In this document: in pieces, positions 3,508 through 64,000 of the stretch
How positions within the stretch are numbered: position 1 is the first letter of the stretch
Layout of the letters: the number at the start of each line of letters is the position of its first letter
Source: Flavobacteriaceae bacterium
GTDB lineage: Bacteria > Bacteroidota > Bacteroidia > Flavobacteriales > Flavobacteriaceae
DNA length: 64,000 bases
Reading direction: 5' to 3'
Assembly (NCBI GenBank): GCA_965659665.1
Contig: CBFHWU010000002.1
Span: 12,336-76,335 of the forward strand
Made by a program: the position numbers and the translations under genes
The notes under the pieces: model-generated
Database searches by the model: none
Seen by the model: the letters and a program-made list of their open reading frames with translations, nothing else
Told to the model about the DNA's origin: nothing

Positions 3508-4631
3508 GATAATGTTTGTTGTAAGGCATTGAAAAATTGGTCAATATGTTTTTTTTGTACGGTCAGTGGGGGTAGAATACGCAGCAGGTTTTTATTACTA
3601 CTTCCCCCTGTAAAAATGCGATGTTCGTAAATAAGTTTTTTGCGAAGTTCACTTACTTCATATTCAAATTCTAGGCCAAGCATCAAACCACGTCCCTTGA
3701 TGTGCTTGACTGCTGAAATTTCTTCAGCTTTTCGTACAAAATAATCACCCATATGGGATGCATGTTGCTGCAATTTTTTCTTTTTTAATACTTCTAAAAC
3801 AGCTAACGAAGCACTACAACCTAAATGATTGCCTCCAAAAGTTGTTCCTAGCATACCATACTTGGGTTTGATATCGGATCGAATTAATATACCTCCTATT
3901 GGAAATCCATTTCCCATCCCTTTAGCTATTGAAATAATTGATGGGGTGATGGGATAATGTTGATAAGCAAAAAATGTTCCTGTTCGTCCAAAGCCTGATT
4001 GTACTTCATCGGCAATCAATAGAGCACCATAGCGTTCACATAATTTTTCCATGGTTATCACAAAATCGTGATTAGGAGTATCTAATCCGCCCACTCCCTG
4101 AATAGGTTCAAATATGACCGCGCATACGTCCCCTTGTTGAAGTTCCTTCTCTAACAAAACATCATTATCAAAAGGAAGGAAAGTGACTTTTTGTTGTAAA
4201 TTTAAAGGAGCATTTATTTTTTTATTATCTGTTGCAGCCACAGCAGCACTGGTTCTTCCATGGAAGGCATTTTTAAAAGCAATTATTCTAGAGTTACCTG
4301 TTTGAAAAGAAGCAACTTTAAGTGCATTTTCGTTAGCCTCAGCACCCGAACTACACAAAAATAATTGAAAACCTTTACAACATGACTGGCGTTCAATTTC
4401 GTCGGCTAATTGTTGTTGAAGCGGATTATGAATGGCATTAGAATAAAACCCAATTTTATTGAGTTGACGTCTGATTTTTTTGACATAAGTGGGGTGTTTA
4501 TGTCCAATAGATATCACGGCATGTCCTCCGTACAAATCTAAATACTTTTTTCCATTTTCATCAAAAACATACACGTCTTTAGCGTTTATTGGGGTAACAT
4601 CATAAAGTGGATACACATCAAATAAAGGCAT
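3504..4631 (-). CDS. argD: acetylornithine (acyl-ornithine) aminotransferase, class III PLP enzyme
   Basis: 375-aa ORF with a class-III aminotransferase pattern (GGHAVISIGH, ADEVQSGFGRTG). It overlaps the argF' start by 4 nt. Confidence 0.88.
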   Translation of the reverse strand: MPLFDVYPLYDVTPINAKDVYVFDENGKKYLDLYGGHAVISIGHKHPTYVKKIRRQLNKIGFYSNAIHNPLQQQLADEIERQSCCKGFQLFLCSSGAEANENALKVASFQTGNSRIIAFKNAFHGRTSAAVAATDNKKINAPLNLQQKVTFLPFDNDVLLEKELQQGDVCAVIFEPIQGVGGLDTPNHDFVITMEKLCERYGALLIADEVQSGFGRTGTFFAYQHYPITPSIISIAKGMGNGFPIGGILIRSDIKPKYGMLGTTFGGNHLGCSASLAVLEVLKKKKLQQHASHMGDYFVRKAEEISAVKHIKGRGLMLGLEFEYEVSELRKKLIYEHRIFTGGSSNKNLLRILPPLTVQKKHIDQFFNALQQTLS

Positions 4632-5432: not shown

Positions 5433-6419
5433 TTAAAATAAATTTGCTTTAAGCTTTAACCCAGTATTTTGATCGAACCCGAACATCAAGTTCATGTTTT
5501 CAACTGCCTGACCAGAGGCACCTTTTAATAAGTTGTCAATAATACTTGTGACTAATAATTGATTTTTGTGTTGGTGTATATGCAACACACAATTGTTGGT
5601 GTTGACCACTTGTTTTAAAAAAATCTCATTTTTTGACACAAAAGTGAAGGGACTTGTTTGATAAAAATGAGTATACATTTGATAAGCGTCTTCTAATGAT
5701 CCTTCATATTCGGTGTATGAAGTAGCAAAAATTCCTCTTGAAAAATTTCCTCGTATTGGCATAAAGTTTAACTCTATTTCAGAGCCTTGCAACGATTCTA
5801 ATGTTTCTCCAATTTCTCCGAGGTGTTGGTGGGTAAAAGGTTTGTACCACGAAACATTGTTATTTCTCCAACTAAAGTGTGAGGTAGCCGAAGGCTTTAT
5901 ACCCGCACCTGTACTCCCCGTTATGGCATTGATATGAACGGAGTTTTTAAGTTGATTATTTGAAGCTAAAGGAAGTAAAGCCAATTGAATTGCTGTGGCA
6001 AAACAACCTGGGTTGGCAATTGCCTGGGCAGATTTAATAGCTAATTTTTGATATTCAGGCAATCCATAAACAAATGATTTACCCATGTAGATATGATCGG
6101 AATTAAGCCTAAAATCAGTACTAAGATCAATGATTTTTGTATTATCGTTAAAAACATTTTCATGTAAAAACGTCCCAGAATTTCCATGCCCTAAACACAA
6201 AAAAAGGACGTCAATATCAGGATTTATTTCTTGGGTAAAAATCATGTCAGATTTTCCTAATAAATCAGGATGAGAACGGTATAATTTTTCAGTTGCCTGT
6301 GTGGTACTATACACAAAATCAAGGGTAACGTTCGGATGATCAAGCAATAATCGAAGTAATTCACCACCTGTATATCCAGATCCTCCGATTACTCCAACCG
6401 AAATTTTATTTGTTGACAT
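5433..6419 (-). CDS. argC: N-acetyl-gamma-glutamyl-phosphate reductase
   Basis: 328-aa ORF with VGVIGGSGYTGGEL and the catalytic-Cys motif NPGCFATA. Confidence 0.9.
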   Translation of the reverse strand: MSTNKISVGVIGGSGYTGGELLRLLLDHPNVTLDFVYSTTQATEKLYRSHPDLLGKSDMIFTQEINPDIDVLFLCLGHGNSGTFLHENVFNDNTKIIDLSTDFRLNSDHIYMGKSFVYGLPEYQKLAIKSAQAIANPGCFATAIQLALLPLASNNQLKNSVHINAITGSTGAGIKPSATSHFSWRNNNVSWYKPFTHQHLGEIGETLESLQGSEIELNFMPIRGNFSRGIFATSYTEYEGSLEDAYQMYTHFYQTSPFTFVSKNEIFLKQVVNTNNCVLHIHQHKNQLLVTSIIDNLLKGASGQAVENMNLMFGFDQNTGLKLKANLF

Positions 6420-7584
6420 GGTTGTAAATTTTAGTTGCGTTTGCAGTAATTTTTATAAATCCTTTAGCTTCTTCAGCCGTCCAAGCATTGTTAATTTCTC
6501 CATAGGTTCCAAAACTGTTGTCCATTAAATCGTTCTCTGATTCAATCCCATCCAAGATAAATCGATAAGGTTTTAGTGTGACGAAAACAGTTCCGTTTAC
6601 CGTTCGTTGACTGCTGCTGAAAAATTGTTCAATATCACGCATAACAGGTTCAAGATATTGCCCTTCGTGGAGTTGCATCCCGTAAAAATTAGCCATATTT
6701 TCTTTTTGGAATTGTTGCCATTTGCTCAAAGTATGTTTTTCGAGCAGATGATGAGCTTTGATAATGAGTAATGCTGCAGCTGCTTCAAAGCCTATTCTTC
6801 CTTTAATTCCTATAATTGTATCACCAACATGTATGTCTCTTCCAATAGCATAAGAAGATGCAAGGTGTTCAAGTCGCTCAATAGCTTCAACAGGGGGAAA
6901 GAATTGTTTATTAAGACCAATTAATTCTCCTTTTTTGAAATGTAAACTTATTTTTTCTGTTTCGTTTTTGGTGGGCTGATTTGGATAGGCTTTTTCGGGA
7001 AGCGGGTAACGAGAGGTTAGTGTTTCACTGCCTCCAACACTGGTTCCCCACAAGCCTTTATTGATAGAATATTGTGCTTTTTCCCATGACCAACCAATGC
7101 CATGCGTCTGTAAAAATTCAATTTCTTCTTCTCTAGTAATTTTTTGATCCCGAATGGGGGTAATAATTTCTATCGTAGGAACCATGATTTGAAATATCAT
7201 ATCAAATCGAACTTGGTCATTTCCAGCTCCTGTGCTTCCATGAGCAATGGCATCAGCTTTATGTGTTTTAACATATTCTGCAATTGCTACTGCTTGTATG
7301 ATTCGTTCTGCGCTCACCGATAGGGGGTAGGTATTGTTTTTGAGCACATTGCCGTAAATAAGAAATTTTACGATTTGATCATAAAACTTTTGCACCGCAT
7401 TTATGGGAGTATATGAGGCTGCACCCAATGCCATTGCTCTATCTTTAAGAATTTGTGTTTCTTTGGCATCAAATCCTCCAGTGTTAACACTCACGGCATG
7501 TACTTCGTGCCCTTTTTGGGTTAATGATTTTATGCAATAAGAGGTATCTAACCCCCCGCTATAGGCTAATACTATTTTTTTCAT
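6406..7584 (-). CDS. argG: argininosuccinate synthase
   Basis: 392-aa ORF with the PP-loop AYSGGLDTS. It overlaps the argC start. Confidence 0.92.
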   Translation of the reverse strand: MKKIVLAYSGGLDTSYCIKSLTQKGHEVHAVSVNTGGFDAKETQILKDRAMALGAASYTPINAVQKFYDQIVKFLIYGNVLKNNTYPLSVSAERIIQAVAIAEYVKTHKADAIAHGSTGAGNDQVRFDMIFQIMVPTIEIITPIRDQKITREEEIEFLQTHGIGWSWEKAQYSINKGLWGTSVGGSETLTSRYPLPEKAYPNQPTKNETEKISLHFKKGELIGLNKQFFPPVEAIERLEHLASSYAIGRDIHVGDTIIGIKGRIGFEAAAALLIIKAHHLLEKHTLSKWQQFQKENMANFYGMQLHEGQYLEPVMRDIEQFFSSSQRTVNGTVFVTLKPYRFILDGIESENDLMDNSFGTYGEINNAWTAEEAKGFIKITANATKIYNHVNK

Positions 7585-8437: not shown

Positions 8438-9727
8438 GTGAAAAAATTTCCCCTTACAAATACTGCTCATTTTTCGAGTCAACTATTGTGCTGGGTTAAA
8501 AAATTTGAAGTCCATTTGTGGTTAGATTCTAATCAATATCAGCATAAACATAGCACTTATGGAAGCATATTGGCCGCTGACCCTATGAGTGAAATCTCGT
8601 CTCCATCAACAGGTTCATTTGATATTTTAGAAAGGTATATTAAGTTAAAAAAAGATTGGTTGTTTGGGTACTTGAGTTACGATTTAAAAAATGATCTCGA
8701 AAACTTAGATTCCTCTAATGCTGATTCATTGAAGTTGCCTGAGATGTATTTTTTTCAACCCAAAAAAATATGGATTATTGAAAGTAATTGTGCCAGTGCT
8801 CATTATACGAATCAAGAAGATATTGAAAATGATTGGTTGGAAATTCAAAACACCCAACCTATTTCAGAGACTTCAACTTCATTAGAGTTGAAACCAAAAT
8901 TCACCAAACAAGAATATTTAGATGCTGCACAGCAATTAATTCAGCATATTCACCGAGGGGATATTTATGAAGTGAATTTTTGTATGGAATGGTTCGCTGA
9001 ACAATGTAAAATAGTCCCTTTATCGGTATACCAACAACTTAATAAAATATCTAAAACACCTTTTGCTGCTTATTTCAAAAAACGTGAGCATTATCTTATT
9101 TGTGCGTCTCCTGAGCGTTTTTTAAAAAAAACAAACACTCGTTTGATTTCTCAACCCATTAAAGGAACAGCAAAGAGAGACCCGGATGATGTCCTGGACA
9201 AATCGTATGCTTTTCAATTGGTCAATAATAATAAAGAAAGAGCTGAAAATATTATGATTACTGATTTGGTTCGAAACGATTTGTCTCGTGTAGCTAAAAA
9301 GAGAACAGTACAAGTTTCAGAACTGTGTCATGTGTATCCGTTTGAGCAGGTACATCAAATGATCACGACTATTGAAGCAGAGCTTGACTCCTCATTTGAT
9401 GGGCTGGATGCCATCAAAGCTTGTTTTCCTATGGGTAGCATGACGGGCGCACCAAAAATTAAAGCGATGAAACTCATAGAAAACTATGAACAAAGCAAAA
9501 GAGGATTGTACAGTGGCTCGGTAGGTTATTTTACGCCTAAAGGAGATTTTGATTTTAATGTGGTAATTAGAAGTATGATTTATAACGCAAAAAAAGAATA
9601 TCTTTCCATTCAAGTTGGAAGTGCATTGACAGCTGCTGCAAATCCAATTGATGAATTTCAAGAATGCCAACTAAAAGTAAAAGCTCTGAAAGAAGTACTC
9701 CGCTATCCGGCTCTAACTAAGGCCTAA
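8438..9727 (+). CDS. pabB: aminodeoxychorismate synthase component I (chorismate-binding enzyme)
   Basis: Chorismate-binding family pattern (GDIYEVNFC, PERF, GTAKR, PMGSMTGAPK). The ORF is open from 8273, but residues encoded before about 8438 are AT-rich hydrophobic junk. I prefer the in-frame GTG at 8438 (VKKFPLTNTAHFSSQLL). ATG 8333 and ATG 8273 remain possible. Confidence 0.75.
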   Translation: MKKFPLTNTAHFSSQLLCWVKKFEVHLWLDSNQYQHKHSTYGSILAADPMSEISSPSTGSFDILERYIKLKKDWLFGYLSYDLKNDLENLDSSNADSLKLPEMYFFQPKKIWIIESNCASAHYTNQEDIENDWLEIQNTQPISETSTSLELKPKFTKQEYLDAAQQLIQHIHRGDIYEVNFCMEWFAEQCKIVPLSVYQQLNKISKTPFAAYFKKREHYLICASPERFLKKTNTRLISQPIKGTAKRDPDDVLDKSYAFQLVNNNKERAENIMITDLVRNDLSRVAKKRTVQVSELCHVYPFEQVHQMITTIEAELDSSFDGLDAIKACFPMGSMTGAPKIKAMKLIENYEQSKRGLYSGSVGYFTPKGDFDFNVVIRSMIYNAKKEYLSIQVGSALTAAANPIDEFQECQLKVKALKEVLRYPALTKA

Positions 9728-49953: not shown

Positions 49954-50141
49954 CGCCCGGCTAAACGCAGTGGGGTTCTGGATGTTGAGTTTTTCGAGTT
50001 TACTCGATAAAACACAACATACAATAAGCACCTTATCAAATTGTGATTTAGCCATTGATGTGGCATCGTTTTCTCTCGATGGGCAGTTAAAGCTGTATGT
50101 TAAATTATAGATCATAGCGAGCAATTTGGTTTAGCGGGGCG
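49954..50141. repeat. long-range 13-nt inverted repeat CGCCCGGCTAAAC / GTTTAGCGGGGCG (one mismatch)
   Basis: Read directly: the arms are 49954-49966 and 50129-50141. The right arm abuts the 82-nt structured repeat. It is flanked by CTAAC (49950-49954) and GTTAG (50226-50230). Confidence 0.6.
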
Positions 50142-50224
50142 ATGTAGCACATTTCCAAAGGGACGGGAGCGCGTCAACGGCGTGCGTAGTAACTTTGGTC
50201 AGCTTTTGCTGAATGTGCTACATC
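50141..50224 (+). repeat. GC-rich self-folding repeat, copy A (candidate att/attC-like site or small structured RNA)
   Basis: GATGTAGCACATT...AATGTGCTACATC closes a three-way-junction fold. It is 77/82 identical to 62749-62830 and far more GC-rich than its surroundings. Confidence 0.7.
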
Positions 50225-50550
50225 GGTTAGTATATGAAAAGCAGCGGGCTTTAAGCACTAACTTTTCGTTTTATAACTGACCTTTATGTTATTATTTATC
50301 TTTCCTTTAAGCACCAAAACCGCTATTTTTTTATATACCGCTTAGGTTTGTCTTTTAATAACTTAGACACTTAAACAGAAAGAATAAAAGAGAGCATTAA
50401 GGTTACTATATACGGTGAAGCTTTAGACTTCGACAATATTGATAATCCTCTTTCTTTTCTACTAAAAATCACGTTCAGTTCTGTGAGACTTTGATCTCGA
50501 TTTCAAGTTGTTGTGAATTGAGTAGATTATTCTTTCAACAATCAATAGTT

Positions 50551-60130: not shown

Positions 60131-60194
60131 GCTACAACGGTTTGAATATGGTGCGTATCCCGCAGGGTATGCATTATACACCTTGTTGTAGGGC
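60131..60194. repeat. 64-nt imperfect palindrome with AAC...GTT outer boxes (attC-like candidate)
   Basis: The outer box CTACAAC (60132-60138) pairs with GTTGTAG (60185-60191). Two bulged T bases follow. The central stem is GCGTATCC/GGGTATGC, with two G.T pairs that exist only on the plus strand. Confidence 0.5.
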
Positions 60195-60199
60195 GTTTT

Positions 60200-60778
60200 T
60201 TATTCAATAATATCTTCAAAGATTATTTCATTTTTTACTTTGCTAATTGAAATTCTCCTAAAAGCCGGAGCATAACCTTTTTGTCCACTTGGTTCGCAAT
60301 ATTCTCTAACAAAAGCAAATTCAGTTTCATAGTTTTGAATCACTTTGGGTCCAAAATATCTTTTGTCCGACATATAAAGCACCTCTTCAACAGAATTATT
60401 TTCCGCTTGAAAATTGTCCGAGTTTTTGATTTTGTTAACAGCATTATTTTTATCTCTTTCAGATATTTCTAAAGTGAAAGTATGGTAATAATCACCTATT
60501 GCTGACATGGATTCATTATTAACAAGTTCGAACTCGTCAATTAGTTCCATTCCTTGTTCTTCAATAAGTCTTTTTGCATTATTCTCAGTAAAAAGCTGAT
60601 CCTCAAAAACTATGAAGAATGTAATTGCTAGTACAATTAAGCCGTATCCAATTATAAGATATGTTGAGGCCTTTGGATATCCAAGCCGTTTAGGAATGAA
60701 ATATAGGAGAAGTCCAACTCCGACAGGTATTCCTATAAATACAAGCATTAATAAACCTATGAATAGATATTCGTCCAT
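60200..60778 (-). CDS. hypothetical membrane protein (2 N-terminal TM segments)
   Basis: 192-aa ORF with no recognisable family. Confidence 0.5.
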   Translation of the reverse strand: MDEYLFIGLLMLVFIGIPVGVGLLLYFIPKRLGYPKASTYLIIGYGLIVLAITFFIVFEDQLFTENNAKRLIEEQGMELIDEFELVNNESMSAIGDYYHTFTLEISERDKNNAVNKIKNSDNFQAENNSVEEVLYMSDKRYFGPKVIQNYETEFAFVREYCEPSGQKGYAPAFRRISISKVKNEIIFEDIIE

Positions 60779-60859
60779 TGATATTTCGTTTTTTTTAATG
60801 CCCTACTAGTGTGTATATACTCCTTTAGGGGTGTTTATTTTCGTTATGTTTTTGTTTTT

Positions 60860-60898
60860 GTTCAACAATACTTCCCCAATCAGCATGTATTGTTGAAC
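60860..60898. repeat. perfect 12-bp stem / 15-nt loop hairpin at the 3' boundary of recombinase remnant 1
   Basis: GTTCAACAATAC-N15-GTATTGTTGAAC, 2 nt beyond the stop of the 60901-61233 ORF. It has the same architecture as 63551-63589. Confidence 0.7.
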
Positions 60899-60900
60899 TT

Positions 60901-61233
60901 TTATTCAATGTAACAATCATCTAAAGGGTTTTTTATTTTTCCAATTTCTTGAACGGAAACCCGTGTATAAAGTTCCGTTGTTTTGCGGCTATTATGCCCC
61001 AATAAAACCTGTATAGGTTTCAAGCTAACCCCCTGTTCCAATAAATGTGTTGCAAAACTATGCCGCAACATATGTGGAGTTACTCTTTTTTGAATTCCAA
61101 CAAGTTTAGCTTTGACTCCCTCGGGTTGTGTTTGTTTTTTGACCAAATCCAATAACGCCTTGTCATAAGCAAAATCTAGTTTTACAATAGCTTGTTGTTT
61201 GTGAACGTCGGGTATTAATCGTAGGTTTTTCAT
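60901..61233 (-). pseudogene. tyrosine recombinase remnant (internally deleted: about 35 N-terminal plus about 75 C-terminal residues)
   Basis: The C-terminus [39 protein letters not shown]...KIKNPLDD carries the R-H-x-x-R/H...Y catalytic box. At 110 aa, against the roughly 300+ aa usual for this family, it cannot be functional. Confidence 0.75.
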
Positions 61234-61324
61234 TACTAGAAAACAAATCTGGGGGGTTGTCTATCTCTAAATTTGCAAAAAATTACCAACTTCCAAAATG
61301 TACATGCTGCTTTTCTCTTATGTT
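61221..61324 (-). repeat. 104-nt conserved leader of the recombinase module, copy 1
   Basis: About 90% identical by eye to 63808-63911. It covers the start codon, the first codons and about 90 nt upstream. Confidence 0.8.
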
Positions 61325-61870
61325 TAGCGAATTTATTTGGGGCTTAATCATTTTCAAAAGTCCAATTCACCTCCATCAGAATGCTTATCATCCGTATAAT
61401 GGTAAGGAAAATATTTTTTACACACGCTCATTAGGGGTTAATGAGCACAAAACAAGGGTGAACGGTATGTTTTTGTATGGAAATGGTCATTATTAACCTG
61501 ATAAAAGCTGTAGGTAAAATCCTACATTTAGATCGTGAGACAACTCATCAAATTGAACGTTAAATATTAAAAAATAAAAGGAAAACAGAGGTTTTAATTA
61601 GCGGTATAGCATATCAAAAGTGACGAACAAAAGCGAGCTATGATTTCTATGTAAAAGATAACACGTTTATTTAAGTTGTAGCAATTGTCTTTATTTCTAT
61701 TATCATTTTTAAAAAATTAATGTTTCATCATTAAAAACTTGTAGGCTACATCTATTTAAAAATTATTTTTTTTTTATATTTGAGAAACCCAAATTTTTCT
61801 GACCCATGAAACAATTTACCACTCCATGGTTGTTTTCCCTTTTTTTAGTTGTCGATTTAACTTTCAATTA

Positions 61871-62572
61871 ATGAAAAAGAAATTAAGATTAATCGTAGAG
61901 GACAACAATTCTAAAAAAGGAAAATTATTTAATTATTTTATACAGGCATTGGTTATCCTGTCACTTATTTCATTTGCTGTCGAAACTTTGCCCAGCATTT
62001 CACCAAACGCAATCGATATGCTTAATGATTTTGAATTGTTTTGCGTATTGGTGTTTACGTTAGAATATTTGTTAAGGATTTATGTGTCAAAAGAACCTTT
62101 AAAATATATATTTAGTTTTTATGGAATTATTGACCTTTTAGCTTTTTTTCCATTTTATTTCAGATTAGCCTATGATTTTAGAGCTTTACGTATTTTTCGG
62201 ATTTTTAGAGTATTAAAACTAATCCGTTATAAAAAAACGCTTTACAGATTCCATATTGCTGCTAAAATAGTTAAAGAGGAGATGATTTTGTTTTTTTTTG
62301 TTACCTCAATATTCATATTCCTTGCATCGGCAGGTATTTACTTTTTTGAAAATAAAGCGCAGCCCGAATTATTTAGCTCTATATTTCATAGTGGTTGGTG
62401 GGCTATAGCAACATTAACGACAGTTGGTTATGGCGACGTTTATCCTATTACTATGGGGGGGAAAATATTTACTTTTTTTATTCTTTTAATTAGTATTGGA
62501 GTGGTTACAGTTCCGGCAGGATTAATTGCCAGTGCTTTATCTAAAGCACGTGAAATAGAAGAAAAAAATTAA
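61871..62572 (+). CDS. voltage-sensor-type K+ channel, accessory-region paralog (no zinc-ribbon tail)
   Basis: S4-like RALRIFRIFRVLKLIRY and filter TTVGYGD. ATG 61871 (MKKKLRLIVEDNN) is preferred over the 61826 extension. Confidence 0.82.
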   Translation: MKKKLRLIVEDNNSKKGKLFNYFIQALVILSLISFAVETLPSISPNAIDMLNDFELFCVLVFTLEYLLRIYVSKEPLKYIFSFYGIIDLLAFFPFYFRLAYDFRALRIFRIFRVLKLIRYKKTLYRFHIAAKIVKEEMILFFFVTSIFIFLASAGIYFFENKAQPELFSSIFHSGWWAIATLTTVGYGDVYPITMGGKIFTFFILLISIGVVTVPAGLIASALSKAREIEEKN

Positions 62573-62746
62573 ACAAATTGTTTTTAACTAATCAATCTTA
62601 AAAGAACTTTAAAAGGTATTAAAACTAGCGTTACCATGTGTGGTTAATTACGTTGGCTAGGACTAGTTAATAAACAAAAACGAACAATAGGAAAATCCGT
62701 AGGATTATCCGAATACACACAAACAAAACAATTGACTATACTCCGT

Positions 62747-62830
62747 GTTGTAGCACGTTTCCAAAGGGACGGGAGCGCGCCAACGGCGTGCGTAGTAACT
62801 TTAGTCCGCTTTTGCTGAATGTGCTACACC
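62747..62830 (+). repeat. GC-rich self-folding repeat, copy B
   Basis: It has the same orientation as copy A. There are 5 differences in 82 aligned nt by manual alignment. Confidence 0.7.
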
Positions 62831-62946
62831 GTTCAGATAAGCTCAGTGAGCATATCCATTCGGGATGATTTTAAAGTTGATATCTTGCACTAAAATGTGT
62901 TTACGGTTCAGTTTGCTCATTAAGCTTATTGTTTGTTATCAGCATC

Positions 62947-63324
62947 TTAATTGGTGCTTTCCCACAATATTCTAATTTCTACTAATTTATCTAATGATAT
63001 GTTAGAACAACTGTCTTCATTTCTATTCCCATCAACTATGTGGCAAACAGTTGCTCCGAGACAATTATACAATTTAAAATTATTATCATCTCCATAAGAA
63101 ATTAGGGTATCCTGTTTGTACGTATACAATTTGGAAGAATTATCTGGAGGATTAGCTATGGTACTTATTCCATTTTCACCATACAACCAATCATAATCAT
63201 CGATCAATTTTTTTAACCATGTTAATTCTTCAATGGGATTTTTGTAATTACATTCAATTGGTTCAATTTTTTCTTGACAATAAAGAAAAAGCAAAAGAAA
63301 AAAAGCCATACATAACTGTTTCAT
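62947..63324 (-). CDS. small lipoprotein, hypothetical
   Basis: ATG 63324 gives MKQLCMAFFLLLFLYCQEK (a lipobox-like Cys). The upstream in-frame part of the 62947-63540 ORF is a different, remnant domain. Confidence 0.55.
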   Translation of the reverse strand: MKQLCMAFFLLLFLYCQEKIEPIECNYKNPIEELTWLKKLIDDYDWLYGENGISTIANPPDNSSKLYTYKQDTLISYGDDNNFKLYNCLGATVCHIVDGNRNEDSCSNISLDKLVEIRILWESTN

Positions 63325-63561
63325 TATTTTGAGGGGATTATAATTTGTTTTGATATAATTTGTTTGTTGCTTCAATAAATATACCGTAAGCTTCAAGCTA
63401 CTTAAATTTATTAAGGAAACCTTATCATCAATTTCTTTTTGAAAAACATGATTACCCAATAAATCAGTTACGATTACATTAAATTTTAAGTCCTCATTAT
63501 AATAGCTTACAAAATCAATAAATAAGACATTATTAGTCACGGGGTTAGGAGTGTTGTTTAG
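63325..63561 (-). pseudogene. remnant of a T9SS C-terminal sorting domain (body of the gene missing)
   Basis: LNNTPNPVTNNVLFIDF...VIVTDLLGNHVFQKEI...INLSSLKLTVYLLKQQTNYIKT fits the Por-secretion-tail pattern. There is no upstream cargo domain and no stop of its own. It reads straight into the lipoprotein ORF. Confidence 0.45.
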
Positions 63562-63589
63562 CTTACTTTTTCGGAGGGCTAAACAACAC
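63551..63589. repeat. perfect 12-bp stem / 15-nt loop hairpin at the 3' boundary of recombinase remnant 2
   Basis: GTGTTGTTTAGC-N15-GCTAAACAACAC. The arm sequence resembles the 60860-60898 arms (9/12) but in flipped arm order. Confidence 0.7.
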
Positions 63590-63820
63590 GTTATTATTTT
63601 TTTGAATTCCTAAAGAATCAAAAGGATTCTTTATATTTTCAAACCCTTTTTTCGTAATATGTATAAAGTTTTCAGTGGTCTTGCTACTACTATGCCCTAA
63701 TAATTCTTGAATATATCCTATGTCTGTCCCTTGTTTAATTATGCGAGTAGTAGTAAGCGTACCTGTGTTTAAAGTTGCTAATCGTCGCCGGAATTCAGGA
63801 ATGAGTAGTAGGTTTTTCAT
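63563..63820 (-). pseudogene. tyrosine recombinase remnant 2 (more degraded)
   Basis: MKNLLLIPEF... then GTDIGYIQELLGHSSSKTTENFIHITKKGFENIKNPFDSL. It has the same N-terminal codons and C-terminal box as remnant 1 but is only 85 aa. Confidence 0.7.
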
Positions 63821-63911
63821 TACTAGAAAACAAAACTGGGGGGTTGTCTACCACTAAATTAGCAAAAAATTACCAACTCCCAAAATGTACATGCTGCTTT
63901 TCTCCCATGTT
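63808..63911 (-). repeat. 104-nt conserved leader of the recombinase module, copy 2
   Basis: Aligned by eye with 61221-61324, including the shared string ctggggggttgtcta and ccaaaatgtacatgctgcttttctc. Confidence 0.8.
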
Positions 63912-64000
63912 CCGCTATTATGTAATCCCATGTTTACATCAATTGCATAACCAAAACGGAACGAAAATCACCAACTGTGTCGCTCTGTACTAAGGAATCA

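Follow-up and report, generated by a model that had tools for sequence, protein, structure and literature searches.

Shortened recombinase genes in a Flavobacteriaceae genome as probable decayed platforms of an integron-like cassette system

[quoted passage not shown] Xanthomonas chromosomal integrons carry an inactivated intI downstream of ilvD (bioRxiv 10.1101/2025.06.18.660453; Gillings et al. cited there), and CALINs were described by Cury et al. 2016 (PMC4889954). As here, the recombinase gene of a decayed integron stands at a fixed chromosomal site and heads a one-directional array. The gene has been inactivated by large deletions, frameshifts or stops in many lineages while the array persists, and attI adjoins it, with cassettes joined at the G|TT of a GTTRRRY-type box. 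Unlike the integron integrases, the recombinase studied here has no IntI-specific domain and reads into the array instead of away from it, an orientation that departs from classical integrons with a divergent intI and recalls the 'inverted' integron group. In further contrast to decayed integrons, its remnants occur within arrays as well and have been duplicated, a conserved hairpin is found between the gene end and attI, and exchange beside dead copies apparently continues.

The searched parts of the rAID-1 papers (Ross et al. [quoted passage not shown] 2019), report a cargo dominated by orphan immunity genes (Ross et al. [quoted passage not shown] The layout is shared by the system considered here, and relatives of its recombinase, 41-44% identical to the full-length homologue P0001, occur in Bacteroides MAGs (L049, L050). 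A further mark of rAID-1, at least two co-directional, low-G+C downstream genes with repetitive intergenic motifs, is seen here too: contigs C3 and C5 are low in G+C (0.327 and 0.329; genome about 0.355), and C3 and locus L014 show co-oriented ORFs with repeated site motifs. The host, however, is a marine member of the Flavobacteriaceae and the cargo is not visibly made up of immunity genes; gutted recombinase copies, an attI crossover point and a gene-end hairpin are not described in the searched parts of the rAID-1 papers. A third parallel is offered by the delta-attI-type cassettes of class 1/2 integrons, an experimentally tested IntI1 system in which attI or its remnants lie inside arrays and can serve as the cassette-ending recombination site (PMC12901181). 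The putative attI copies described below differ in coming with a promoter and recombinase remnants.

Two recombinase genes without an interior

The stretch analysed, hereafter the window, comprises 64,000 nucleotides of contig CBFHWU010000002.1 (positions 12,336 to 76,335). A sequence-only reading had described two recombinase modules in it, module 1 at 60860-61324 and module 2 at 63551-63911. Both are indeed found at these coordinates on the minus strand, each with the three parts ascribed to it: a leader, a shortened ORF and a hairpin (Table 1).

Table 1. Features of the two modules and their surroundings, in window coordinates
Feature	Position	Strand	Comment
attC-like imperfect palindrome after first module 1 cassette ORF	60131-60194		by reading
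First cassette ORF behind module 1	60200..60778	-	192 aa, membrane protein
attI-like block of module 1	60800..60859	-	AAAAACAAAAACATAACGAAAATAAACAC, small CCCC/GGAG hairpin (60819-60833), TATATACACACTAG, degenerate R box
Degenerate R box of attI-like block	60800-60812	-	
Hairpin 1	60860..60898	-	GTTCAACAATAC, 15-nt loop with ATTGGG, GTATTGTTGAAC
Module 1 ORF	60901..61233	-	110 aa; N-terminus compared with P0001 and L102
Partner direct repeat	61145-61153		ATTGGATTT; marks C3_R deletion
Module 1 core leader	61234..61312	-	read as promoter and 5'UTR
Inverted repeat in module 1 UTR	61239-61261	-	AAACAA/TTTGTT
Module 1 -7-like box	61265-61276	-	GCAAATTTAG
Module 1 -33 box	61290-61300	-	TTTG-type
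Segment upstream of module 1 leader	61313..61551	-	common to some copies only
Direct repeat	61358-61366	-	ATTGGACTT
attC-3'-end-like box upstream of module 1 leader	61456-61469	-	CATACCGTTCACCC
T9SS C-terminal sorting domain fragment	63325..63540	-	translation by reading; directly behind hairpin 2
Hairpin 2	63551..63589	-	GTGTTGTTTAGC, 15-nt loop, GCTAAACAACAC
Module 2 ORF	63563..63820	-	85 aa; profile match and reading of translation
Module 2 core leader	63821..63899	-	
Module 2 -7-like box	63852-63863	-	GCTAATTTAG
Module 2 -33 box	63877-63887	-	
Peptidase N-terminal fragment upstream of module 2 leader	63900 to beyond window end		translation by reading

The leader is common to both modules (61208-61324 versus 63795-63911; 89.7% identity over 117 nt, ungapped) and spans the start codon. 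Five copies occur in the genome: two on contig C2, one at C17:169127-169257 and one each at the starts of C13 and C11. That of module 1 is presumably a promoter, as judged from the Bacteroidota -33/-7 consensus, and its core has no structure as a single strand (z +0.9). The distal limit of this core, AAGCAGCATG, is common to module 2 and C11, and the core leader of module 2 borders on what is left of the coding sequence for a peptidase N-terminus (NSGTWE, 63902-63919). Full-length homologues have the leader too, its promoter-proximal half being carried by L134, L135, L102 and L014. The proximal ~60 nt common to full-length genes reads TTTTTTG-TAAnTTAG...AAACAA...CCCAaATtTGTT...ATG, and the distal sequence is genome-specific, unmatched in 40 relatives.

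Both ORFs open with MKNL(R/L)LIP, as do full-length relatives, and both are cut down to N-terminal codons and a C-terminal catalytic box, as had been read from the sequence. In module 1 the recombinase N-terminus (~33 aa) is joined in frame to the C-terminal 65-77 aa, which include ...LLGH...LYTRV...KNPLDD; the box I Arg, the catalytic Lys and the entire SAM-like domain are gone, and PF00589 matches with its last third only (profile positions 119-171 of 172, E 1e-16). Module 2 joins ~10-20 N-terminal codons to a degenerate C-terminal box, in which HxLRH is lost and Phe stands in place of the catalytic Tyr (TTENFIHI), and its match to PF00589 (profile positions 138-170, E 1e-4) falls under the gathering score. 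By these matches, the complete R-K-H-R-H/W-Y set and the core-binding domain are absent from both ORFs; since the interior has been lost by in-frame deletion, neither product can catalyse recombination. Derivation of the modules from a full-length recombinase by deletion, as had been proposed, is borne out by their termini, which match P0001, L102 and a partial copy on C3. Full-length homologues exist, in this genome as the partial C3 copy and elsewhere as P0001, L102 and L019. The two ORFs go back to separate recombinase subfamilies and their junctions differ, that of module 1 recurring in P0122 and on C3_R and that of module 2 in a C31 paralogue (72% nucleotide identity). Dozens of metagenome relatives of 94-179 aa also retain both ends, at varying junctions. 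The T9SS and peptidase fragments on its two sides place module 2 among gene debris.

The hairpins are perfect 12-bp stems with 15-nt loops in both modules, beginning 20 nt (hairpin 1) and 27 nt (hairpin 2) after the NP(L/F)D codons. Folded as DNA, they reach -11.0 and -10.7 kcal/mol, respectively (z = -5.3 and -7.8 against dinucleotide shuffles). They had been regarded as versions of one element, a view that found no support: hairpin 1 is a conserved part of an attI region and hairpin 2 is unique. The 9/12 match that had been noted, of the hairpin 1 3' arm to the hairpin 2 5' arm, was confirmed by reading, but nothing beyond shared AACAA/TTGTT-type content was found in it. As proposed, hairpin 1 is retained in full-length genes of its subfamily (L102, L019), and it is conserved at 26 loci from metagenomes and, within this genome, at four positions. 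The 3' tail of the ORF contains it in intact relatives, where it is translated STIHADLGSIVEQ; in Marinilabiliales loci a homologous hairpin shows compensatory changes. Hairpin 2 has no second copy in the genome or among 120 fetched loci; even the C31 paralogue of module 2 lacks it, and it stands outside the conserved system. A perfect hairpin of 12 bp or more is no rarity here, with 180 nested matches in the 2.17 Mb genome. Behind the stems come AAAAACAAAAAC (hairpin 1) and TCCTAACCCC (hairpin 2), and a scan for intrinsic terminators (G+C-rich stem, then T run) calls neither hairpin.

Intact relatives, cassette arrays and the docking site

The full-length recombinase is a Xer-like protein of ~380-400 aa with an ~100-aa N-terminal extension. 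It scores 237.9 bits against the NF040815 profile (cutoff 220) and passes the NCBIfam model for XerA, which is also its best solved relative (4a8e, E 5e-41). The alignment with XerA and XerD covers its catalytic and core-binding domains over their whole length. It differs from XerA/XerC/XerD in the additional N-terminal domain and in being a multi-copy, decaying gene at cassette arrays. The IntI-specific insertion, for which a check had been suggested, is absent. In the alignment with VchIntIA (2A3V), query residues 103-291 correspond to chain residues 11-197 and 293-366 to 244-317; the query runs on from residue 291 to 293, so IntI residues 198-243 have no counterpart. The integron integrase model TIGR02249 gives 212 bits against a cutoff of 265, with the match in two stretches. 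The partial copy on C3, which runs off the contig end, is the only member in this genome above the NCBIfam cut-off; besides it, C7 and C31 each have a Xer-like gene (308 and 320 aa, respectively), and these are taken to be the housekeeping pair.

Full-length homologues do sit next to cassette arrays, as had been anticipated: in relatives within the Bacteroidota, the recombinase lies at the 5' end of a co-oriented array of apparently attC-type cassettes. Recombinase and cassettes share one orientation in C3, at L014 and at other loci. Eight small co-oriented ORFs come after the recombinase at L014, with intervening sites of the form GCTAAC-N3-GTATA...TATAC-N6-GTTAGC. Strict attC-like matches, with sites judged by reading and a home-made heuristic rather than IntegronFinder's covariance model, occur at 0.088/kb downstream and 0.008/kb upstream of 84 full-length genes, an 11-fold difference. 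attC-type palindromes are clear by reading at L014, L041, L074, L076 and L080 and in the window, where the palindrome behind the first module 1 cassette has a homologue in the L014 site at 8766-8825. A search of Rfam returned no match for the attC-type sites. The cassette cargo of the window reads as heterogeneous, with RtcB, tyrosinase-like, membrane and T9SS proteins.

Hairpin 1 is part of an ~95-nt block with an attI-type site at its end. From AAAAGTTCAAC to ACACTAG this block is 80-99% conserved (27 unique sequences), and in these sequences identity stops exactly at TAG|TT, beyond which lie GTTRRRY-like boxes and unrelated genes. Judged from the sequences, attI would adjoin the gene as in an integron, with the cassette junction at the G|TT of a GTTRRRY box. 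The motif A[TC]AC-N2-7-GTT is found at most 105 nt from the stop codon in 46 of the 84 full-length loci. The modules had been described as elements that retain their ends and have lost their coding interior. This fits the slow evolution of the hairpin 1-attI block, but the hairpin itself was not upheld as the end: the functional boundary lies ~60 nt beyond it, at TAG|TT.

Ten loci have an identical deletion junction, with the start codon 258 nt ahead of the hairpin, and ten different sequences after TAG|TT. One deletion allele with ten different first cassettes suggests a docking site that is served in trans. Inside a single deletion allele, the hairpin 1-attI block shows a synonymous divergence of 0.065 and the remnant one of 0.29-0.34, synonymous sites of the block thus changing ~5x more slowly than those of the adjoining remnant. 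In related genomes, the docking site beside a dead copy has been conserved better than that copy and appears to have received further cassettes. Module 1 reads GTAGGGC instead of GTTAGG at its R box, so its attI copy is probably damaged, and it may be fully dead. A 108-aa remnant (L098) and two full-length genes (L102, L134) all stand behind one core gene ending ...DAYDEVIHL*, a position that would reflect orthologous decay.

Origin of the copies and of the open frames

The modules are probably what remains of platforms in an integron-like (rAID-like) cassette system of the Bacteroidota, in a decayed and non-autonomous state. An intact platform would consist, in order, of a promoter with 5'UTR, the Xer-like recombinase and an attI-type site ending in G|TT, 20-110 nt behind the recombinase stop, with attC-bounded cassettes following on the same strand. 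After the deletion, the promoter/leader would survive in cis and presumably still transcribe into the cassettes behind it. The hairpin 1-attI block of module 1 would survive likewise, and comparative data suggest that an intact paralogue could insert or exchange cassettes there in trans. Copies inside arrays would stem from segmental duplication and from homologous or illegitimate recombination between arrays, not from transposition. That the remnant ORFs are still open (pN/pS 0.36-0.42) speaks against this explanation, as does the purely synonymous difference between module 1 and C3_R given below. Open, constrained frames are not predicted by a plain pseudogene reading, unless gene conversion from intact paralogues accounts for them; the mosaic P0123 shows that such exchange occurs.

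The shortened ORFs could also be kept for a function, either as a regulatory C-terminal fragment that binds the recombinase or attI, which we consider improbable, or as a leader frame whose translation through hairpin 1 to attI couples first-cassette expression, like ORF-11 in attI1, to which we give no greater credence. The frame is open in 9 of 10 unique sequences of the 108-aa allele despite a pS of ~0.27-0.34 (9 of 12 once the frameshifted L117 and L126 are included), the core pN/pS is 0.36, and between module 1 and C3_R, 48 codons show 4 synonymous differences and no non-synonymous one. In L098, L102 and others the frame stops shortly before the attI core is reached, and every recovered derivative is an in-frame deletion, though ORF-based searches favour these. 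However, conserved residues decay in some remnants (HxLRH degenerate, Tyr to Cys/Phe, GH to GY), the N-terminal part is near-neutral (pN/pS 0.73) and stops or frameshifts are present in L104, L117 and L126. The module 1 stop precedes hairpin 1, which is therefore not translated through. Gene conversion of the P0123 kind can bring in a low pN/pS from intact paralogues, and by a rough estimate about a third of neutral copies would stay open anyway.

The sequence-only reading had likened the modules to MITEs, which they resemble in a lost coding interior, retained cis-acting parts and the need for an enzyme in trans. MITE-like mobility was not upheld: 5' boundaries vary, terminal inverted repeats and target-site duplications are absent at the module copies, and the retained site, unlike a MITE end, docks cassettes. 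It is unlikely that the modules are mobile units, be it of this kind or as 'platform cassettes' in which an intact recombinase would cut out and re-insert the segment bounded by an upstream attC-type G|TT and the attI G|TT, and a spread of promoter+attI units through arrays by this route is just as hard to credit. Copies with the same junction do lie at different places (module 1/C3_R, module 2/C31), a ~170-nt mini-unit of variant leader, about 8 codons and attI hairpin occurs five times before different genes on C2 and C5, and a 112-nt hairpin 1-attI unit is also found behind an unrelated ORF on C8 and C29. An attC-3'-like box precedes the module 1 leader, and class 1 integron cassettes ending in attI remnants are functional (PMC12901181). 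Yet the 5' limits of the leader repeat vary (at AAGCAGC in C11 and module 2, at ATGGAGGTG in C17 and ~240 nt further out in C13 and C3_R), and in none of these copies was a G|TT-type junction seen there. The copies also carry flanking sequence along: module 1, C3_R and C13 have common flanks, as in segmental duplicates, the segment upstream of the module 1 leader reaching 61379 in C17 and about 61551 in C13 and C3_R. A deletion bounded by two ATTGGAYTT direct repeats distinguishes C3_R from module 1. In other genomes, remnants occupy the orthologous platform position beside core genes, not new sites. By eye, the stretch upstream of the module 1, C17 and C13 leaders resembles a decayed copy of the peptidase fragment adjoining the module 2 leader; a flank shared in this way fits segmental duplication.

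It is barely conceivable that a simple local duplication left the shared parts behind by coincidence and without wider meaning, as the 2.6-kb spacing and common orientation of the modules and the genome-specific distal leader might suggest, given the different subfamilies and junctions of the ORFs, the nearest relative of module 2 on another contig and the same architecture in many unrelated metagenomes and genomes.

Implications for cassette systems of the Bacteroidota

For the window alone, reading the modules as decayed platforms is mostly a clarification: they are recombinase pseudogenes with retained cis elements and no new kind of transposon. More broadly, it supplies a testable anatomy for a Bacteroidota cassette system, with a promoter/leader, a Xer-like recombinase lacking the IntI domain, a gene-end hairpin and an attI whose crossover point would be readable as TAG|TT. 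Arrays without an intact neighbouring recombinase would be scored as integrase-less by integron-finding software; as the docking site outlives the enzyme and apparently works beside dead copies, such arrays may still be dynamic. If the enzyme recombines folded attC-type sites, the indispensability of the IntI-specific domain would be called into question.

A stronger version, which we hold to be doubtful, is that gutted platforms form a maintained non-autonomous class, served in trans by an intact recombinase that is itself rare, and copied through arrays as promoter+attI units; it is with the same reserve that we would expect such a class to retain promoter, open mini-frame and hairpin-attI site. 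Were it true, long and otherwise promoterless arrays would possess internal points of expression and insertion, and an insertion-less Xer-like enzyme would perform attI x attC chemistry without the supposedly essential domain.

Gutted recombinase genes and their intact relatives

Two recombinase modules lie on the minus strand of the window, each made of a leader, a gutted recombinase ORF and a hairpin, and the features that the sequence-only reading ascribed to them are real. Start codon and upstream leader align at 89.7% identity over 117 nt, hairpins 1 and 2 each combine a perfect 12-bp stem with a 15-nt loop (z of -5.3 and -7.8 against shuffled sequence), and the Pfam Phage_integrase profile is matched in its last third only, at profile positions 119-171 of 172 in module 1 and, under the gathering score, at 138-170 in module 2. 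Full-length relatives measure 380-397 aa, carry ...FAYD...GARWSQT in the N-terminal part and end in LLGH...Y.H....P.D; they include P0001, 94% identical to the product of the long copy that opens contig C3 (the C3 protein), and the gene of L102, one of the loci fetched from relatives and metagenomes. In module 1, about 33 N-terminal residues are fused in frame to the last 65-77, and in module 2 about 10-20 N-terminal residues precede a degenerate tail from which HxLRH is gone and in which the nucleophilic tyrosine has become phenylalanine. Neither product can act as a recombinase.

Such internal deletions are not confined to this genome, as a search with module 1 returned dozens of 94-179-aa proteins from marine metagenomes with the same two ends and different junctions. 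The metagenome protein P0123 (121 aa) combines 65 N-terminal residues of the module 1 type with a tail of the C3 type, joined within a conserved stretch, a mosaic indicating that paralogues or recombinase subfamilies recombine by homologous exchange. The closest relative of module 2 is the module on contig C31, which has the identical deletion junction, 72% nucleotide identity and no hairpin; for the C-terminus of module 2, no close full-length relative was found among the fetched loci, identity reaching at most 60%. One core gene (...DAYDEVIHL*) precedes both the 108-aa remnant of locus L098 and the full-length genes of L102 and L134, which shows that decay took place on the spot. The intact L102 gene is directly preceded, at oriented coordinates 6180-6440, by a second piece of recombinase N-terminus (aa 14-98) in a decayed state, an indication that platforms were inserted or duplicated more than once at one chromosomal site. 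The modules are gutted versions of the recombinase gene that heads the array, with its putative promoter and, in module 1, the attI region (the docking site for cassettes) kept, and belong to a size series running from the full gene through 110 aa and 85 aa to copies without an ORF.

The window corresponds to C2:12336-76335, and the assembly (2.17 Mb, 32 contigs) holds five leader copies: two on C2, one at C17:169127-169257 and one at the very start of each of C13 and C11. In C3_R, leader and first 26 codons have been lost, relative to module 1, between two ATTGGAYTT direct repeats. A comparison of the start of C3 with all contig ends gave no assembled overlap, the C3 5' end being joined to neither the C13 nor the C11 leader, so the 5' end of the single long copy is unassembled. 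The C17 copy (169084-169306) comprises leader and 26 codons without the 3' part; it stands in front of a lipoprotein gene and has core genes as neighbours, namely genes for cbb3 oxidase maturation and an fnr-like regulator. A further array, of minimal size, may begin with this copy. Adjoining the leader at the start of C11 is an ORF (C11:175-1188) whose N-terminus resembles, by eye only, an ISAs1-family transposase.

Recombinase remnants, mini-platforms and associated features
Feature	Location	Strand	Description
Module 1 ORF	window 60901-61233	minus	110 aa; recombinase-like, on C2
Module 2 ORF	window 63563-63820	minus	85 aa; recombinase-like, on C2
C3_R	end of C3		copy of module 1 3' part, 95% identical
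Third module	C31		
Recombinase stub	C17		26 codons
Long recombinase copy	start of C3		345 aa, runs off contig
Ordinary Xer-like genes (two)	C7, C31		
Mini-platform	L133:215-450 (= C2:76550-76785)		just past window end
Mini-platform	C2:83676-83829		
Mini-platform	C2:82925-83024		
Mini-platform	C5:1947-2059		
Mini-platform	C5:4083-4235		
Self-complementary repeat, ~82 nt	window 50141-50225		
Self-complementary repeat, ~82 nt	window 62745-62830		
Self-complementary repeat, ~82 nt	C31 ~201880-201950		
Self-complementary repeat, ~82 nt	C3 ~4300-4530		
Secreted S1-type peptidase, N-terminal fragment	window 63900-64000 and L133:1-170		signal peptide ... RFGYAIDVNMGLHNSGTWE, frameshift
T9SS C-terminal sorting-domain fragment	window 63325-63540		flanks module 2

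Hairpin 1 and the attI docking site

Used as an exact pattern against metagenome contigs, the hairpin 1 core identified 26 loci, which together with the genome's own copies give 27 unique sequences. Throughout these, a block conserved at 80-99% runs from AAAAGTTCAAC through hairpin 1, AACAAAAACAAAAATATAACGGAAATAAACAC and a small second hairpin to TATATACACTAG, and identity drops to background directly past TAG|TT, where the sequence continues with differing GTTRRRY-like boxes (GTTGGCA, GTTGTGC, GTTATGG and GTTAGCT among others) and with unrelated genes. Conservation that ends so abruptly bears the signature of a docking site predicted to join cassettes at G|TT. The C3-type site, GATATATCGGAAC..GTTCTGATATAC..AGTAG|TT, continues with GTAAGC in C3, GTAGGC in L014 and ATCTGC in L134, and a 112-nt unit of hairpin 1 and attI also stands behind an unrelated ORF on C8 and C29 with the divergence point unchanged. 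The R box of module 1 (the GTTRRRY-type box at whose G|TT cassettes would be joined) reads GTAGGGC and is probably damaged.

On the sequence-only reading, the shared parts would have been coincidental leftovers of a local duplication had full-length homologues been absent or lacked both leader and hairpin, and two loci show otherwise. The 397-aa gene of L102 is intact; its frame extends across hairpin 1 (tail KTKSSTIHADLGSIVEQKQKYNGNKHT) and closes immediately ahead of the attI core, and L019 is a second full-length gene carrying hairpin 1. Intact genes are a minority: where metagenome loci extend 1.2 kb or more upstream of hairpin 1, which is so in nine, a full-length gene is present in one, a remnant only in five and nothing recognisable in three.

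The docking site has outlasted the enzyme in a 108-aa deletion allele shared by eleven loci, in which the start codon lies exactly 258 nt before the hairpin. Over ten unique sequences of this allele (loci L101, L103, L104, L108, L110, L115, L116, L119, L123 and L098), pS is 0.29 and pN/pS 0.73 in the first 24 codons, 0.34 and 0.36 in the core remnant, and 0.065 and 0.15 in the tail from hairpin 1 to attI; the low tail pS indicates constraint on the DNA itself. Past TAG|TT, ten loci of the allele carry ten different sequences, so the first cassette appears to have been replaced repeatedly after the recombinase was gutted, for which an enzyme supplied in trans would be the simplest reading. A plain pseudogene does not explain the open frame of the allele, which persists in nine of the ten unique sequences at a synonymous divergence of about 0.3; its catalytic residues are degenerate despite the pN/pS of the core.

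The arms of hairpin 1 spell RYYYAAC/GTTRRRY, as if it were a miniature attC (the imperfect palindrome bounding cassettes), yet AAC/GTT is lost in Marinilabiliales homologues, the stem is perfect and without asymmetric spacers, and in an intact gene the reading frame encloses the hairpin; this candidate was rejected. In the Marinilabiliales loci L061, L031 and L045 the hairpin directly follows the stop codon (CAATACATGC..ATTGG..GTATTG) and is like hairpin 1 in the stem and partly in the loop. An alignment of six hairpin sequences, from two clades only, has 95.8% of cells paired and three pairs changed on both sides, a pattern across orders that a palindromic protein-binding site would produce as well. 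In 77 loci, folding of the 110 nt after NPLD is more stable than that of shuffles, with a mean z of -1.3 and 30% of loci below -2. Hairpin 1 is read as accessory to the attI region, and could serve recombinase binding or control read-through into the cassettes. Hairpin 2 resembles it in stem length, loop length and position, a likeness that is not backed by homology; a search with hairpin 2 and its flanks turned up no second copy, either in this genome or among all fetched loci.

Leaders, mini-platforms and the mode of copying

The proximal ~60 nt of the leader, which reads TTTTTTG-TAAnTTAG, AAACAA...CCCAaATtTGTT and ATG AAA AAC CTA, is common to the full-length genes of L134, L135, L102 and L014 and to the C31 module, and we take it to be a putative promoter of the Bacteroidota TTTG / TAnnTTTG type. 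A sigma-70 scan, whose model is inapplicable to Bacteroidota promoters, found 18 promoters against 15 expected, no enrichment. The leader DNA had no match in 40 relatives, making its distal part (AAGCAGCATGTACATTTTGG...) genome-specific; as a single strand it is unstructured.

The modules had been proposed to be MITE-like deletion derivatives of an autonomous recombinase element, with leader and hairpin as retained ends. MITE-like transposition is not supported. Copies of the leader repeat vary in where they end on the 5' side, and the sequence upstream of the module 1, C17 and C13 leaders resembles, by eye, a decayed copy of the peptidase fragment flanking module 2, which argues for segmental duplication rather than transposition. 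Module 2 itself lies between that N-terminal fragment, whose NSGTWE abuts the leader, and the T9SS sorting-domain fragment, and these could represent opposite ends of a single gene that had its central part replaced.

Mini-platforms of ~170 nt open with a variant leader (TTTTTTGTAGTTTTAG...CCCAAATCTGTTCT) and some eight codons in decay; a stretch rich in T comes next, and an attI hairpin of the C3 type, with AG|TT at its end, completes the unit. A different gene lies behind each of the five copies, and their single deletion junction indicates that the unit was copied within arrays.

The recombinase family, its arrays and known systems

The full-length recombinase passes the NCBIfam XerA model (237.9 bits, cutoff 220) and fails the integron-integrase model (212, cutoff 265), its match to the latter being split in two. 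Against the solved Vibrio integrase IntI4 (2A3V), residues 103-291 correspond to chain 11-197 and residues 293-366 to chain 244-317, and nothing corresponds to the 46 residues that make up the IntI-specific domain; the IntI-specific insertion is absent, and archaeal XerA is the best solved relative.

Relatives occur in eighty loci in genomes of Flavobacteriales, Marinilabiliales, Bacteroidales, Cytophagales, Chlorobiota and others, and full-length copies do sit beside cassette-like arrays. In L014 the recombinase gene, divergent from a gyrB-like gene, is followed by eight small unrelated ORFs on the same strand, separated by sites such as GGCTAACACAGTATAAAC...GTTTATACGCTACCGTTAGGC. Hits to a strict attC-like pattern, a home-made heuristic, reach 0.088 per kb downstream of the genes against 0.008 upstream, an 11-fold difference in density; a loose home-made version did not separate array from core, with 0.6-0.9 hits per kb everywhere. 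In 46 of 84 loci the stop codon is followed, after 10-105 nt, by the motif A[TC]AC-N2-7-GTT, in many cases as ATACACATACGTT, against an estimated chance rate of ~10%. Rfam returned a single chance miRNA-like hit over window 44-64 kb, on a palindrome.

In many MAGs (L021, L033, L037, L038, L042, L047, L050, L054, L055, L065, L070, L072 and others) the contig breaks off within 100-300 nt of the recombinase stop codon, on its downstream side, suggesting that assemblies break at attI and the array start, as expected for a population-variable site. A GC-rich, self-complementary repeat of ~82 nt (CGATGTAGCACATT...AATGTGCTACATCG) is found repeatedly where cassettes meet, on several contigs, its C31 copy directly upstream of the third module, and may be a variant attC.

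Integron integrases that occupy a fixed chromosomal site and have been inactivated through large deletions are well described in Xanthomonas (10.1101/2025.06.18.660453), and attI remnants inside arrays are functional in class 1 integrons (PMC12901181). In the rAID-1 elements of Bacteroidales a XerD-like recombinase heads short genes of one orientation, and the repetitive motifs between these genes are termed 'reminiscent of integrons' (10.1101/471110); their biogenesis is stated to be unresolved (PMC12247911). According to the IntegronFinder authors, Bacteroidetes have almost no integrons (PMC9024848), a near-absence to be expected if the enzyme is without the domain that the integrase model requires. 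The likeness to the Xanthomonas integrons lies in a recombinase gene inactivated by a large deletion, and that to rAID-1 in a XerD-like recombinase heading co-oriented short genes with repetitive intergenic motifs. Taken together, the modules are a variant of known recombinase-headed array systems, gutted of their enzyme and with the putative promoter and, in module 1, the attI region kept.
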